NCBI GenBank assembly: GCA_050729815.1
Contig: JBOHLV010000102.1
Span: forward strand, 12,772 to 76,771
DNA: 64,000 nucleotides
Reading direction: 5' to 3'
Origin: Stellaceae bacterium
GTDB lineage: Bacteria > Pseudomonadota > Alphaproteobacteria > ATCC43930 > CGMCC-115725
Shown: piece by piece, positions 784 through 34,790 of the stretch
Layout: the number at the start of each line of letters is the position of its first letter
Numbering within the stretch: position 1 is the stretch's first letter
Notes under the pieces: generated by a model
Told to the model about the DNA's origin: nothing
Database searches by the model: none
What the model saw: only the letters and a program-made list of their open reading frames with translations
Program-made: the position numbers and the translations under genes

Positions 784-2253
784 ATGTGGAGACCGGAACA
801 GCGCATCCGATACAGCCCCGCCGCCGGCCGAATACCGAGCCGAGCGGAAGCAGCCGCCTCGCGTCTCTTCTCGCCGGTCACCGTGGGGCCGATCACGCTG
901 GCGCAGCGGACCTGGGTGCCGGCCATGGTGCCGTGGCGCGCGACCGAAGAGGGTTTCGTCACCGACGAGGTCCTCGACTGGTATGCGCGGTTCGCGCGCG
1001 GCCGTCCCGGTGCCATGGTGGTCGAAGCGACCGGCATCCGGGACATCGCGAGCGGCCCCTTGCTGCGCATCGGCCACGACCGTTTTCTCCCCGGACTTCA
1101 AAAGCTGGTCGAGACGGTGCGGCGTGAAAGCGGTGGCGAGACCCGGCTCTTCATTCAGATCATCGATTTTCTCGCGATCCGCCGGCGTCCCGAGCGCGGC
1201 CGTTTCCTGACGCAATTCCTGGGCATCACCGAGGGGCACCGCCGAGCGCTCGGCGAGCGGCTCAGCGACGACGAAATCCGCGCCCGTTTGATGGCGCTCT
1301 CGCCGGCGGAATTGCGCGGCGTGCTGACGGCCGGCGAATGGGAGGCGCTGGAGTCGGGCTATCGCGAGCACGTAACCGACATGGCGTTGCGCCAGATCGC
1401 CTCTCTGCCGACGGTGTTGCCCGATCTCTTTGCCGATGCCGCCGAGCGGGCGCGTCGCGTCGGCTTCGATGGGGTCGAGTTGCATTACGCCCATGCCTAT
1501 ACGATGGCGTCGTTCCTGTCGGCCACCAACGATCGTAACGACGGGTATGGGGGGCCGCGGGAACATCGGGTGCGCCTGCCGCTCGAAGTCTACGATGCGG
1601 TGCGCCGCCGGGTCGGACAGGATTATGCCATCGGCTGCCGCTTCCTTGCCGAGGAAAGCATCGCGGGCGGCAGCACCCTCGACGATGCGGCCTATTTCGG
1701 TGTCGAATTCGCCCGGGCGGGGATGGATTTCCTCTCGACCTCCCGCGGCGGCAAGTTCGACGACGCGAAGCAGCCGGCGGTCGGTGCCGCCGCCTATCCC
1801 TATACCGGGCGCAGCGGCTATGAATGCATGCCGCAATATCTCTCGGACGAGCGGGGGCCCTTCGGCCGCAACATGGCGCCGACCAAGACGATCCGCGACG
1901 CGGTGCATGCCGCCGGTCTCGCTGTGCCGATCGTCTGTACCGGCGGCATCCATAATTTTGAGATGGCGGAGCGGGCGCTGGTGGAGGGCGTCTGCGACAT
2001 CGTCGGCGCGGCACGACAGTCGCTCGCCGATCCTGATTGGTTCCGCAAGATCGAACTCGGTCTCGGCGATCAGGTGCGACGCTGCGAATACACCAATTAT
2101 TGCGAGGGTTTGGACCAGAAGCATAAGCCCGTGACGTGTCAGCTCTGGGATCGGGACGCGCTTGATGAGCCGGGGGCGCGCCTCACCCGCGACGGACGCC
2201 GCCGTCTCGTCGCGCCCGACTGGCAAGCGCCGGTCAGCGCCGCGGAATCTTGA
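784..2253 (+). CDS. Old Yellow Enzyme-family NADH:flavin oxidoreductase with C-terminal Cys-containing extension
   Basis: LFSPVTVGPITLAQR N-terminal region and GFDGVELHYAHAYTMASFLS match the OYE/FMN oxidoreductase core. The tail contains CEYTNYCEGLDQKHKPVTC. The start is uncertain (ATG 784 is the only in-frame start upstream of the conserved N-terminus). Confidence 0.8.
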   Translation: MWRPEQRIRYSPAAGRIPSRAEAAASRLFSPVTVGPITLAQRTWVPAMVPWRATEEGFVTDEVLDWYARFARGRPGAMVVEATGIRDIASGPLLRIGHDRFLPGLQKLVETVRRESGGETRLFIQIIDFLAIRRRPERGRFLTQFLGITEGHRRALGERLSDDEIRARLMALSPAELRGVLTAGEWEALESGYREHVTDMALRQIASLPTVLPDLFADAAERARRVGFDGVELHYAHAYTMASFLSATNDRNDGYGGPREHRVRLPLEVYDAVRRRVGQDYAIGCRFLAEESIAGGSTLDDAAYFGVEFARAGMDFLSTSRGGKFDDAKQPAVGAAAYPYTGRSGYECMPQYLSDERGPFGRNMAPTKTIRDAVHAAGLAVPIVCTGGIHNFEMAERALVEGVCDIVGAARQSLADPDWFRKIELGLGDQVRRCEYTNYCEGLDQKHKPVTCQLWDRDALDEPGARLTRDGRRRLVAPDWQAPVSAAES

Positions 2254-3838
2254 TCCCCGCCGCCTCGCGGTCCCAGGTCGCGGCTGTCACCCCACGCTCG
2301 CGCAGCTTGAACTTCTGAATCTTGCCGCTTTCCGTCGCCGGCAGGGTATCGCAAAACTCGATATAGCGCGGCACCGCAAAATAGGGCATGCGCGGCGCGC
2401 AGAAACGCACAAGGTCGGCGGCGTCGAGCACGCCGCCCGAGTGCAGCACTATCGCGGCCATCACCTCATCCTCGGCGAGGTCAGAGCGGACCGGAAACAC
2501 GGCGGCTGTCGCGACCTCGGGATGGCTCAACAACACCTGCTCAACCTCGAATGAGGAGATGTTCTCGCCGCGCCGGCGAATGGCGTCCTTCAGCCGATCG
2601 ACGAATTTGAAATAGCCGTCGCGATCGCGGATCACCCGGTCGCCGGTATGGAACCAGCCGTCGCGCCAGGCCTCGGCGGTCTTTTCCGGCGCCGCGAAAT
2701 AGCCCCTGGCGAAGGCAAGCGGCTCATCCGCGCTGAGGATGAGTTCACCCTGCCCGCCATCGGCAACGTCGCGATCCCGGTCATCGACGATGCGCGCGGC
2801 GAAGCCGGGGCAGACGCGGCCCATGAGTCCGGGCCGCTGCCCTTCGATCCCGGTGCCGATGACGAAGTTGGTCTCCGTCGAGCCATAGCCATCGAGAAGA
2901 TGAATACCGGTGCGCCGGGTAAACTCTTCGTGGAAATGGCCCGGCACGCCGGGCGCCAGCGCGATTGGGACGCGGTGCGCCCGTTCCTTGGGATCGGGCG
3001 GGCGCGACAGCAGGATCGGCACCATGGCGCCAAGCAGATAGGCCACGGTGGCGCCGCGCCGCGTCAGCCCATCCCAGAAACGCGATGCGGAAAAGCGCGG
3101 CTCAAAGATCGCGGTTGCGCCGGTGATTAGTGCCTGGAAAAACGTGTTGAGCGCGTTGGTGTGGAACAGCGGCAGGGTCGTGCACAGCACGTCGTCGGCG
3201 TCAATGCCGAGGAGATGCGCGGTATGGACGCCCCACCAAAAATATTGTGCGTGAGGGCAGCAGACGCCCTTCGACGGCCCGGTCGTGCCGGAAGTGTAGA
3301 GCACCGCGAACAAATCCTCGGGCCGGGGCGAGGCTGTATCGACGGCCGCGCCAAGCGGCGGCATTGATCGCGCGATCGCGGGTGGCGTTACGCCCTCGCC
3401 GGGCGCGTCGATGAGCCAGATGGCTTCAAGTGGCAAGGCGGCGAGATCGAGGTGATCGAGCGACGACAGGAATTCGGCTTCGATCACCAGGAGTCGCGCC
3501 GCCGAATTGCCGAGAATATGCTGAAGCTGCGCGCCGCGCGACGCGACATTGATTGGCACCAGGATCGCACCAAGCCAGCCGCAACCGAGCATCGTCTCGA
3601 TGAACTCGGGCCGGTTGGAAGAGATGAGCGCGACCCGGTCGCCGGGTTTGATGCCGGCGGCCAGAAGGCGTCCCGCCGCCCGCGCGGCGATGACGGGCGC
3701 TTCCCCAAAGCTCGCTTGCCAGGCGCCGGCCGCGACCAGGGGCTTGTCGCCGAATCGTTCCGCCTGGCGGCGCAGCAACGCGGGAAGGCATCGCTCCTCC
3801 GGAGAAAAAGGTAGCGCCCGAAGACGGTCTTCTTGCAT
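2234..3838 (-). CDS. AMP-dependent acyl-CoA synthetase/ligase
   Basis: 534-aa ORF with AMP-binding motif YTSGTTGPSKGV and GDRVIRDRDGYFKFVDRLKD. Its start overlaps the stop of the upstream gene by 1 nt. Confidence 0.85.
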   Translation of the reverse strand: MQEDRLRALPFSPEERCLPALLRRQAERFGDKPLVAAGAWQASFGEAPVIAARAAGRLLAAGIKPGDRVALISSNRPEFIETMLGCGWLGAILVPINVASRGAQLQHILGNSAARLLVIEAEFLSSLDHLDLAALPLEAIWLIDAPGEGVTPPAIARSMPPLGAAVDTASPRPEDLFAVLYTSGTTGPSKGVCCPHAQYFWWGVHTAHLLGIDADDVLCTTLPLFHTNALNTFFQALITGATAIFEPRFSASRFWDGLTRRGATVAYLLGAMVPILLSRPPDPKERAHRVPIALAPGVPGHFHEEFTRRTGIHLLDGYGSTETNFVIGTGIEGQRPGLMGRVCPGFAARIVDDRDRDVADGGQGELILSADEPLAFARGYFAAPEKTAEAWRDGWFHTGDRVIRDRDGYFKFVDRLKDAIRRRGENISSFEVEQVLLSHPEVATAAVFPVRSDLAEDEVMAAIVLHSGGVLDAADLVRFCAPRMPYFAVPRYIEFCDTLPATESGKIQKFKLRERGVTAATWDREAAGIKIPRR

Positions 3839-34186: not shown

Positions 34187-34241
34187 ACGGGAGCGGGAAG
34201 GGCGGCCATTTCGCGGCCATGGGCATATCCCCTCGATCCCC

Positions 34242-34790
34242 TCACAGCCGGACCCAGCCCTCGGGCGGCACCTTTCCGGGATGAAGCGCGCCGCATCGGG
34301 GACAGGTCCGTGCCTCCTCATCCCGATAGAATGCTTCGAAGAGCGGCGGCAGGTCGTGCACGATACTGTGCAGCTTCACCTCGACGCGGTGGATCAGCGC
34401 GCCGCATTGGAAGCAATACCACTCGAACCCGTCATGATCGTCGTTATAGCGCTTCGGCTCGACGACGAGGCCGACCGATCCTTCCTGCGGGCGTTGCGGC
34501 GAATGGCGAACGTGCCGCGGCAGCAGGAAGATGCTGCCCTGTCGGATCGGGACATCATAGAATTCGCCCTCGTCGAAGACTTTCAGCACCATATCGCCAC
34601 GGAGCTGATAGAAGAATTCCTCGACCGGATCATCATGAAAGTCGGTGCGCCGGTTGGGGCCGCCGACCACGGTGACCATGAGGTCCGCATCCTTCCAGAT
34701 TTGCTGATTGCCGACCGGCGGCTTCAGAAGATGGAGATGCTCGTCGATCCAGCGGTTGAAATCGAAGGACTGCAATCGTCCGGTGGCCAT
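34242..34790 (-). CDS. 3-hydroxyanthranilate 3,4-dioxygenase
   Basis: Cupin core [25 protein letters not shown]...[13 protein letters not shown]. The C-terminal CFQCG...CPRCG forms a rubredoxin-like Cys4 site, as in bacterial HAAO. Start set at ATG 34790. Confidence 0.85.

Follow-up and report, generated by a model that had tools for sequence, protein, structure and literature searches.

What does an 11-gene operon that joins a 2-oxoacid:ferredoxin oxidoreductase (IorAB) to a Rieske oxygenase degrade, and does the aryl-coenzyme A (CoA) operon next to it belong to the same route? We addressed this question in a stretch of 64,000 nucleotides (about 65% G+C) from a Stellaceae bacterium (assembly GCA_050729815.1, contig JBOHLV010000102.1), referred to as the window. 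A previous reading, made from the letters alone (the sequence-only reading), had listed IorAB, a cyclase-family hydrolase, a Rieske oxygenase, an operon resembling the 2-aminobenzoyl-CoA pathway and a 3-hydroxyanthranilate 3,4-dioxygenase (3-HAO), and had united them in a tryptophan/indole/anthranilate theme. Plausible open reading frames (ORFs) were scanned against Pfam and NCBIfam, and all five items were found where that reading had placed them. The first four of them held together in the theme, and 3-HAO did not. As judged from the orthology of its products, the operon at 2234-15352 on the minus strand is an indole-3-acetate (IAA) degradation locus of the iad type in a variant form. We put the probability that the whole region makes up an IAA catabolic super-cluster, with the iad locus and an abm-type 2-aminobenzoyl-CoA operon as its parts, at roughly 0.8. 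The pathway of the 11-gene operon, which had been taken for an undescribed one, is the iad pathway already in the literature (PMC9613470, PMC10374108, PMC12633357).

Identity of the 11-gene operon

The operon runs on the minus strand from 15352 down to 2234, and its genes are separated by ATGA or GTGA overlaps or by gaps of a few bases. In transcription order it encodes IorA, IorB, the Rieske alpha and beta subunits, a thiolase-fold protein, a fusion of DUF35 with a short-chain dehydrogenase/reductase (SDR), the cyclase, an SDR, an octopine-dehydrogenase-like protein, a 3-hydroxyacyl-CoA dehydrogenase and an acyl-CoA ligase. Gene starts were refined for IadD (GTG at 11666), IadG (9868) and IadJ (6655). 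The genes of the operon and the transport genes upstream of it are as follows.

13202..15352, minus strand: IadA (IorA), 2-oxoacid:ferredoxin oxidoreductase alpha subunit, with a thiamine diphosphate domain and a C-terminal domain with two [4Fe-4S]-type cysteine motifs (PF02775)
11663..13198, minus strand: IadB (IorB), the beta subunit, with a POR domain and DUF6537 (PRK08312, 664.9 bits, cut-off 348)
10353..11666, minus strand: IadD, Rieske oxygenase alpha subunit, predicted to initiate IAA oxidation (57% identity, E 2.8e-176, to Variovorax IadD, PDB 9o71 and 7yls)
9874..10356, minus strand: IadE, Rieske oxygenase beta subunit (PF00866, E 8e-24; 54-74% identity in related loci)
8690..9868, minus strand: IadG, thiolase-fold protein without the nucleophilic cysteine, probable Ltp2-type retro-aldolase (nearest solved structures 9myr and 6ok1)
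7452..8693, minus strand: IadH, DUF35 (zinc ribbon and OB fold) fused to an SDR-like domain (PF12172, PF01796, PF00106)
6652..7455, minus strand: IadI, predicted isatin hydrolase of the IHA type (PF04199, E 2e-43)
5921..6655, minus strand: IadJ, short-chain dehydrogenase (PF13561 and PF00106; 50-64% identity with the SDR that occupies this position in iad loci)
4815..5906, minus strand: octopine-dehydrogenase/ketopantoate-reductase-like NAD(P) oxidoreductase, accessory (PF02317, PF02558; in about 20 of 80 related loci)
3838..4818, minus strand: 3-hydroxyacyl-CoA dehydrogenase, accessory (NF006125, 502.7 bits, cut-off 427; in a minority of related loci)
2234..3838, minus strand: acyl-CoA ligase of the PRK06155 type (NF004808, 825.9 bits, cut-off 722)
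17182..18330, plus strand: IadK2-like periplasmic IAA-binding protein (53% identity, E 5e-120, to PDB 7ylt)
18355..21913, plus strand: ATP-binding cassette (ABC) transporter, comprising a permease, a permease-ATPase fusion and an ATPase (PF02653, PF00005; 72-82% identity in loci L007, L020 and L027)

After the IadD structures, the next solved oxygenase matched by the Rieske alpha subunit reached only E 1.9e-45. Relatives of this subunit were sought in one genome per species; 577 were found, and the loci of the best 80 were compared. These 80 were 66-74% identical to the window's protein and came from Bradyrhizobium, Hyphomicrobiaceae, Reyranella, Pseudolabrys, Achromobacter, Alcaligenes, Aromatoleum and others. 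The same gene set surrounded iadD in the related loci of Bradyrhizobium, Achromobacter, Aromatoleum, Reyranella and others. The thiolase-fold protein, the cyclase and the SDR at the iadJ position were 50-83% identical in iad loci from the two proteobacterial classes, and the identity of the DUF35-SDR protein went down to 28-30% in the Alcaligenes and Paenalcaligenes loci.

In the literature the locus is written iadABCDEFGHIJK...R, and iorA and iorB (iadA and iadB) are the markers that separate iad from iac (PMC9613470). IadD and IadE are required, and suffice, for IAA conversion, and gene-by-gene metabolomics established the order IAA, dioxindole-3-acetate, dioxindole/isatin, isatinate, anthranilate (PMC9613470, PMC12633357). 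The published model ends at anthranilate and gives iadA and iadB no role. Orthologues of IadA, IadB, IadD, IadE, IadG, IadH, IadI, IadJ and IadK2 and the ABC transporter were all present in the window, the core order A-B-D-E...G-H-I-J was identical to that of the Achromobacter locus L047, and by homology the pathway is expected to end at the level of isatinate or anthranilate. Unlike the published locus, that of the window is physically joined to an abm-type operon and adds genes for the octopine-dehydrogenase-like protein, the 3-hydroxyacyl-CoA dehydrogenase, an alpha/beta hydrolase and a racemase-family protein. IadK2 is an IAA-specific solute-binding protein in which Ser104, Trp172 and Arg199 were mutated (PMC10374108), and its structure 7ylt is in the same deposition series as IadDE. 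As read from the alignment, the window's binding protein keeps Trp172 and Arg199 and has threonine in place of Ser104.

The orthology to Iad proteins and to isatin hydrolase thus bore out an earlier guess at an indolic carboxylate as the substrate, which would be IAA. Pyrrole-ring oxygenation, lactam hydrolysis and CoA-dependent side-chain removal, all of which had been predicted, likewise agree with the enzymes now assigned. The order of steps did not hold: IorAB had been put first, and since published work places the oxygenation of free IAA first, IorAB is not the entry step for IAA. The iaa pathway by which Aromatoleum degrades IAA anaerobically shares the start compound and the proposed CoA-ester end product, but its enzymes are wholly different and include no oxygenase, whereas the window's locus is oxygen-dependent.

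Two of the core proteins are read here differently from their published annotations. The Variovorax study annotates the IadI orthologue as a kynurenine formamidase-like broad amidase (2025 preprint, PMC12633357). The signatures of isatin hydrolases are the metal motif HxG[T/A]HxDxPxH, a WxW/FxW pocket and GLQC or GLAS, and isatin hydrolase A has been solved for Labrenzia aggregata as well as Ralstonia solanacearum (PDB 5nna, 5nnb, 5nmp; PMC6117287). The window's IadI carries HTGTHFDAPIH, WYW and GLQC, that is all three signatures, and is 65% identical (E 1.5e-119) to the Labrenzia enzyme (5nna, 5nnb), but sits within an iad operon. These features suggested that IadI is a true isatin hydrolase, converting isatin to isatinate. 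The Variovorax orthologue of IadJ takes the hydrated IadDE product to dioxindole-3-acetate (PMC12633357).

IadH has been described as an alcohol dehydrogenase that assists reductive side-chain removal (2025 preprint, PMC12633357). In the window's protein, the YxxxK position of the SDR domain reads FSATE, and none of 12 orthologues from both proteobacterial classes keeps both tyrosine and lysine (WSASK, YSASM, HSASQ and others occur). Because the Tyr/Lys pair is lost in all 13 sequences compared, the SDR domain is read as non-catalytic, which suggested that IadG and the DUF35 domain of IadH form an Ltp2-like aldolase. The glycine-rich motif of the SDR domain is also atypical. At the cysteine position of thiolases IadG reads GGASG, and its structure matches were 9myr (E 4e-49) and 6ok1 (E 7.5e-44), both deposited as lipid-transfer proteins; we take 6ok1 to be the Ltp2-ChsH2(DUF35) complex that acts as a steroid side-chain aldolase. 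Both systems combine a thiolase fold lacking the catalytic cysteine with a zinc-ribbon/OB DUF35 partner, and the predicted chemistry is the same, a retro-aldol reaction that splits a tertiary 3-hydroxyacyl-CoA into a ketone and an acyl-CoA. The relationship is distant (E 7.5e-44), however, and the DUF35 domain is fused to a degenerate SDR in the window but to a MaoC hydratase in the Ltp2 system; the substrate in the window would be dioxindole-3-acetyl-CoA.

Compared with published iad loci, the window has no iadC and no IadR-type MarR gene in the operon, and a PRK06155-type ligase at the 3' end would stand in for IadF. IadC, a class IA reductase with flavin mononucleotide and a 2Fe-2S cluster, was absent from the window, where the TGA stop of iorB overlaps the GTG start of iadD (GTGA). 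Of the related loci, 57 contain iorB as well as iadD, and 52 of these have an IadC-type reductase, mostly in a gap of about 1 kb between the two genes; in the remaining five (Reyranella, a Reyranellaceae metagenome-assembled genome (MAG), two Rhodospirillales MAGs and a Rhodopila MAG) iorB abuts iadD as in the window. Four of these five genomes have no IadC homologue at E <= 1e-30, and that of the fifth is only 39% identical. The best homologue in the window genome, with 37-39% identity and the same architecture, is an orphan on another contig. Identity of the ligase with Achromobacter IadF is only 33-34%, and with a second type of ligase from alphaproteobacterial iad loci it is 58-69%; 12 of the 80 related loci carry both types. 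With no IadF-type ligase elsewhere in the window genome, the PRK06155-type enzyme is the only candidate for activating dioxindole-3-acetate. The MarR repressor IadR belongs at the head of an iad operon, but in the window no MarR gene of any type was found in or beside that operon. The MarR gene of the abm operon was considered as an IadR orthologue and rejected, as solved IadR structures were not among its matches, the best of which was the unrelated MarR 3boq.

A further iad-like locus was seen in a 2.0-Mb genome (locus L121, G121:C34:1-10149), where it holds iorAB, an IadF-type ligase, IadG, IadH, isatin hydrolase and an SDR. Its Rieske alpha subunit, cut by the contig end, is 43% identical to that of the window and may represent a divergent oxygenase sub-family.

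The abm-type operon and its link to iad loci

The second operon runs on the minus strand from 30136 down to 23002 and encodes a fusion of a flavin-dependent (FAD) monooxygenase with an old yellow enzyme (OYE) reductase, an SDR, a MarR regulator, an enoyl-CoA hydratase, an acyl-CoA dehydrogenase and an aryl-CoA ligase. The fused protein is of the 2-aminobenzoyl-CoA monooxygenase/reductase (ACMR) type.

27878..30136, minus strand: fused FAD monooxygenase/OYE reductase, ACMR type (NF006101, 1178.6 bits, cut-off 1078; PF01494 and PF00724)
27102..27881, minus strand: SDR (PF00106, E 9e-56), conserved beside ACMR in other genomes
26608..27105, minus strand: MarR regulator (PF12802, PF01047), with MarR proteins of 41-55% identity in many iad and abm loci
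25802..26611, minus strand: enoyl-CoA hydratase-family protein (NF006107, 484 bits, cut-off 330; 66-72% identity in other abm clusters)
24636..25802, minus strand: acyl-CoA dehydrogenase (PF00441, PF02770, PF02771), 59-63% identical to those beside ACMR in L093, L094, L123 and L124
23002..24639, minus strand: aryl-CoA ligase, probable anthranilate-CoA ligase (best solved match anthranilate-CoA ligase 4wv3, E 4.7e-78)
30223..30678, plus strand: RidA-family protein, divergent from ACMR (PF01042, E 2e-20)

At the level of protein families, this operon is identified as an abm-type ACMR pathway. The N-terminal half of the fused enzyme resembles VioD and the C-terminal half OYE. The CoA route for anthranilate is known from Azoarcus/Aromatoleum evansii and from Arthrobacter sp. 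Rue61a (PMC3534580), and a report of the abm route in indole degradation by Cupriavidus sp. SHE is cited in PMC6221969. Like the abm operon of Azoarcus/Aromatoleum evansii, that of the window has a fused monooxygenase/OYE, an aryl-CoA ligase, beta-oxidation-type enzymes and a MarR regulator, and the fused enzyme is 55-58% identical to its homologues in Azoarcus and Aromatoleum genomes. No AntA-type anthranilate dioxygenase scored above cut-off in the window genome. The earlier proposal that this operon dearomatises 2-aminobenzoyl-CoA is supported by the NF006101 match, by 4wv3 and by the make-up of the operon. The RidA-family protein may act as an enamine/imine deaminase on the ACMR product; in locus L091 an aldo-keto reductase-RidA fusion adjoins ACMR.

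The sequence-only reading had named co-occurrence of the two operons across genomes as a check on its proposal. We compared the 50 genomes with the best iadD relatives with 400 genomes sampled evenly from the class of the window. A match to the fused ACMR (E <= 1e-100) was present in 46 of the 50 iad genomes and in 74 of the 400 class-sample genomes. It was full-length and 54-59% identical in 44 of the 46 and broken or partial in the other two; the four iad genomes without a match are all MAGs. iadD and ACMR were on one contig in 18 genomes, and in 12 of these they lay within 35 kb of each other, the distance in the window being 16 kb. The arrangement varied. In Alcaligenes parafaecalis, A. 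pakistanensis, a Paenalcaligenes species and a Pseudomonadota MAG (loci L097 in the genome of L056, L058, L067, and L098 in the genome of L078), the ACMR gene lies between iorAB and iadDE. The window and two Rhodospirillales MAGs (L100 in the genome of L020, and L122) share the order abm operon, transporter, hydrolase, iad. A Rhodocyclaceae genome and Aromatoleum toluvorans carry iorA and the abm operon in divergent orientation and some 4 kb apart. Such varied arrangements indicate that the link between iad and abm arose repeatedly. The co-location of IorAB, the cyclase, the Rieske oxygenase and the abm operon is more than chance, as it recurs in many genomes. Our literature search found no report of an abm pathway adjoining or downstream of an iad locus.

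The proposed route and the possible place of IorAB

In the route that we propose, the IadK2-like ABC system would import IAA, IadDE would oxidise the pyrrole ring of free IAA, and the SDR IadJ would complete the oxidation to dioxindole-3-acetate, as their orthology to characterised proteins indicates. To judge by protein families and gene context, the PRK06155-type ligase would form dioxindole-3-acetyl-CoA, which IadG, held by the DUF35 domain of IadH, would cleave by a retro-aldol reaction to isatin and acetyl-CoA, as chemistry and family suggest. IadI, by orthology, would open isatin to isatinate (2-aminophenylglyoxylate). Isatinate might then be converted to 2-aminobenzoyl-CoA by IorAB; alternatively, free anthranilate would form and be activated by the ligase at 23002-24639. 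The abm-type operon, identified at the family level, would dearomatise and degrade 2-aminobenzoyl-CoA.

The step from isatinate is the one on which the role of IorAB turns. The best family of IorA was TIGR03336 (IOR_alpha) at 293.7 bits, below the cut-off of 650.9, and IorB scored 24 bits on the archaeal-type NF005322 against a cut-off of 237. As scored on these models, IorAB belongs only to the broader IorAB-like family PRK08312 and is not an equivalog-level archaeal-type indolepyruvate:ferredoxin oxidoreductase (IOR). No solved IorA structure was found in PDB at E <= 0.001, and the literature search yielded no function for IadA or IadB. IorA was present in 49 of the 50 iad genomes, with 62-81% identity and in most of them within a few kb of iadD.

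Our tentative assignment, which we rate somewhat below even odds, is that IorAB oxidatively decarboxylates isatinate to 2-aminobenzoyl-CoA. Isatinate is the sole 2-oxoacid of the pathway and IorAB the sole 2-oxoacid enzyme of the locus, and the proposed product is the substrate of the neighbouring operon. In L092, L107 and L108 an isatin hydrolase of the IHB type (GLAS) lies 0.6-2 kb from iorAB, in stretches without iadDE. L108:4341-12632 is a compact operon of IHB-type isatin hydrolase, MarR, iorA, iorB and a tripartite ATP-independent periplasmic (TRAP) transporter (DctPQM), and this type of operon, found also in L107 and L092, looks like a stand-alone module for isatin/isatinate utilisation. 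In the IorA tree, iorA of these three loci falls in the same well-supported clade A as that of the window and all iad-linked iorA. G121 was considered as a further case of isatin hydrolase with iorAB outside iad and was dropped, its contig being the iad-like locus with the divergent Rieske alpha subunit (43%) described above. In Variovorax, an iadC-K2 construct without iadAB was the only strain that strongly accumulated C8H7NO3, the formula of isatinate, together with C7H7NO (PMC12633357). IadA and IadB were up 2.5- and 3.5-fold with IAA in V. boronicumulans (2026 paper). The idea of such a step, already present in the sequence-only reading, has in this way gained circumstantial support.

IorA-like genes were also seen in other settings. 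The window genome has another iorA-like gene, truncated by the end of its contig (G000:C122:2-1336; 60% identity), and an iorB-like gene (C206:12069-13142; 37%). In L093:8568-16259 and L094, from two iad-negative genomes of one genus in the class sample, iorA, iorB, tryptophan 2,3-dioxygenase, kynureninase, an SDR, MarR, enoyl-CoA hydratase, acyl-CoA dehydrogenase and ACMR all point in one direction, and no aryl-CoA ligase was found in 19 kb around this cluster. Its gene content suggests a route from kynurenine to 2-aminobenzoyl-CoA.

Several observations weigh against the reading of the region or the assignment of IorAB within it. Nine genes, iadC-K2 without iadAB, suffice for anthranilate formation in Variovorax (PMC12633357), so IorAB is not essential for reaching anthranilate. 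The abm operon has its own aryl-CoA ligase, and an abmG-like ligase ends the iad operon in L048; if IorAB formed 2-aminobenzoyl-CoA directly, both ligases would be redundant. The second clade of IorA (clade B) lies in the operon with tryptophan dioxygenase, kynureninase and ACMR, where isatinate is not expected. With iadC missing, there is no reductase for IadDE at the window's locus, and the ligase at 2234..3838 is not orthologous to IadF of Achromobacter or Variovorax. The NCBI name of NF006101 is bifunctional salicylyl-CoA 5-hydroxylase/oxidoreductase, so that the substrate of ACMR is not fixed by sequence. Finally, the genome-wide association of IorA with ACMR (raw counts 52/10/22/316, odds ratio 75) was accompanied by a control in which eight genomes picked for an unrelated Rieske paralogue had ACMR in 8/8 and IorA in 7/8. 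Because these control genomes were equally enriched, the association was not relied on; as proof of a shared pathway it was rejected, being confounded by lifestyle and kinship, and gene adjacency was used instead.

Other roles for IorAB were weighed on the same evidence. It might be the entry enzyme, converting tryptophan-derived indolepyruvate to indoleacetyl-CoA, with the rest of the operon acting on CoA esters. Such a role would fit the name of the family and the arylpyruvate activity that is canonical for IOR (NCBIfam), the position of iorAB as the first gene pair of the operon, the TRAP transporters, possible importers of a 2-oxoacid, beside related iorAB pairs, and the second IorA clade in the tryptophan dioxygenase/kynureninase operon. 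We consider it quite unlikely, given that free IAA is itself oxidised by IadDE and IadC, in vitro as well as in E. coli (PMC10374108), that the locus encodes an IAA-specific uptake protein, that IadA and IadB are induced by IAA itself, that metabolomics puts the CoA ligase after dioxindole-3-acetate (PMC12633357), and that iadAB is dispensable for IAA conversion. Also unlikely is a role as a redox module, in which oxidation of some 2-oxoacid would reduce the ferredoxin domain of IorAB itself and so supply IadDE with electrons, or as an enzyme acting downstream of ACMR on a 2-oxoacid that arises after ring opening. In favour of these roles, the stop of iorB overlaps the start of iadD, iorB abuts iadD in all five related loci without iadC, four of those genomes lack an IadC homologue at the threshold given above, and ACMR accompanies IorA in either of its clades, also at loci that have no iadDE. 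A plain substitution of IorAB for IadC is, however, contradicted by 52 of the 57 loci with iorB and the Rieske alpha gene, in which iorAB and iadC are retained side by side. Variovorax can moreover do without IadC, as host reductases substitute for it, and the window genome has, on another contig, the orphan reductase of matching architecture (37-39% identity) noted above. We know of no direct electron transfer from a 2-oxoacid:ferredoxin oxidoreductase to a Rieske oxygenase. A combination of both activities, in which the two electrons per isatinate return through the ferredoxin domain of IorA to IadDE in loci without IadC, is less likely than the isatinate step itself.

The two operons were also held against other substrates. 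If the second operon were a salicylyl-CoA 5-hydroxylase (gentisyl-CoA) pathway, its position beside iad would be coincidental, which we regard as improbable. The NF006101 equivalog bears that name, and the aryl-CoA ligase matches benzoate-CoA ligases nearly as well as 4wv3 (they follow it narrowly, and TIGR02262 scored 345.7 bits, just below its cut-off of 375). Yet the fused enzyme recurs beside iad loci and, in L093 and L094, beside tryptophan dioxygenase and kynureninase, the combination of ligase, fused enzyme, beta-oxidation enzymes and MarR fits the abm clusters of Azoarcus evansii, and no gentisate 1,2-dioxygenase was seen among the window ORFs scanned. This recurrence beside anthranilate-producing gene sets favours 2-aminobenzoyl-CoA over salicylyl-CoA as the probable ACMR substrate. 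Least of all do we expect the 11-gene operon to serve a non-indolic arylalkanoate by an ibuprofen-type (ipf) route of ligase, Rieske oxygenation of the CoA ester and SCPx-thiolase/DUF35. It does contain the enzyme classes of ipfABDEF (Rieske alpha and beta, thiolase-fold protein, DUF35, CoA ligase), but its Rieske alpha subunit is 57% identical to IadD and matches other solved oxygenases only at E 1e-45 or weaker, and the isatin hydrolase orthologue and the IadK2-like protein have no place in such a route. The ipf route was dropped because the Rieske alpha subunit, the cyclase and the binding protein are close to IadD, isatin hydrolase and IadK2.

Surrounding genes and meaning of the probable super-cluster

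Between the iad operon and its transporter lie two further genes.

15536..16324, plus strand: Asp/Glu/hydantoin-racemase-family gene, divergent from iadA (PF01177, E 1e-22)
16326..17132, minus strand: alpha/beta hydrolase between the transporter and iadA, possibly a thioesterase (PF00561, PF12697)

Homologues of the racemase-family gene occur in 14 of 80 iad loci, with 67-72% identity in five and 37-41% in nine; the family includes arylmalonate decarboxylase and maleate isomerase. The hydrolase is found at the same position, with 69-70% identity, in L005, L007, L020 and L027. Two ORFs overlapping these better-supported genes, at 15497-16474 (minus strand) and 16152-17171 (plus strand), had no family match and were rejected as non-genes. 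An OYE-family flavoprotein is encoded at 784-2253 (plus strand), in convergent orientation to the iad operon and at its 3' end; because its homologue in L099 (14460-15545; 69% identity) adjoins an abm cluster, it may belong to the lower pathway. A lone class I S-adenosylmethionine-dependent methyltransferase gene at 22112-22951 (minus strand) lies between the IAA transporter and the abm operon and is not there in L100 and L122, the loci most closely related to the window's. Farther along, the product of an rpoN gene at 37615-39060 (minus strand) is identical to one encoded on a 6-kb contig of assembly GCA_050729915.1, which indicates that a near-identical organism has been assembled more than once.

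34242..34790, minus strand: 3-hydroxyanthranilate 3,4-dioxygenase (TIGR03037, 261 bits, cut-off 146)

3-HAO lies 4 kb beyond the abm operon, with a glutathione S-transferase gene, a DEAD-box helicase gene and small ORFs between them. It is co-oriented with a gene of the dihydrodipicolinate synthase/N-acetylneuraminate lyase (DHDPS/NAL) family and 19 nt downstream of it (34242-35793, minus strand), a neighbour other than the ACMS-pathway genes expected in a kynurenine/3-hydroxyanthranilate pathway. Kynureninase and tryptophan 2,3-dioxygenase (TIGR01814, TIGR03036) had no match in the window genome, which is 99.6% complete. 3-HAO was present in 7 of the 50 iad genomes and in none of them adjoined the iad locus. 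Formation of 3-hydroxyanthranilate from IAA has been reported in V. boronicumulans (2026 paper), but the genomic pattern does not bear this out as a general link, and 3-HAO was rejected as part of the theme on the counts just given. We conclude that it is unrelated to the super-cluster.

Beyond the described pathway, the points of interest are the variant of iad without IadC, the recurrent iad-abm super-cluster, the proposed assignment of IorAB, and the corrected readings of IadH and IadI. Together, our results suggest that a connection between iad loci and the 2-aminobenzoyl-CoA pathway has formed repeatedly, with IorAB as the candidate for the joint. Bacteria with iad set auxin levels around roots, and work to engineer them as plant-growth inoculants is under way (PMC12633357). 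Should the assignment be right, IorAB would fill the isatinate-to-anthranilate step and give the marker genes iadA and iadB a role, as a rare oxygen-exposed 2-oxoacid:ferredoxin oxidoreductase within an oxygenase pathway. If electrons were also returned to IadDE, the last step of the upper pathway would pay for the first. With the IorAB assignment alone, the iad and abm operons would already form a single aerobic route, CoA-bound in part, that leads without a break from auxin into central metabolism, and engineers would learn which genes a host needs to grow on auxin as opposed to merely inactivating it.

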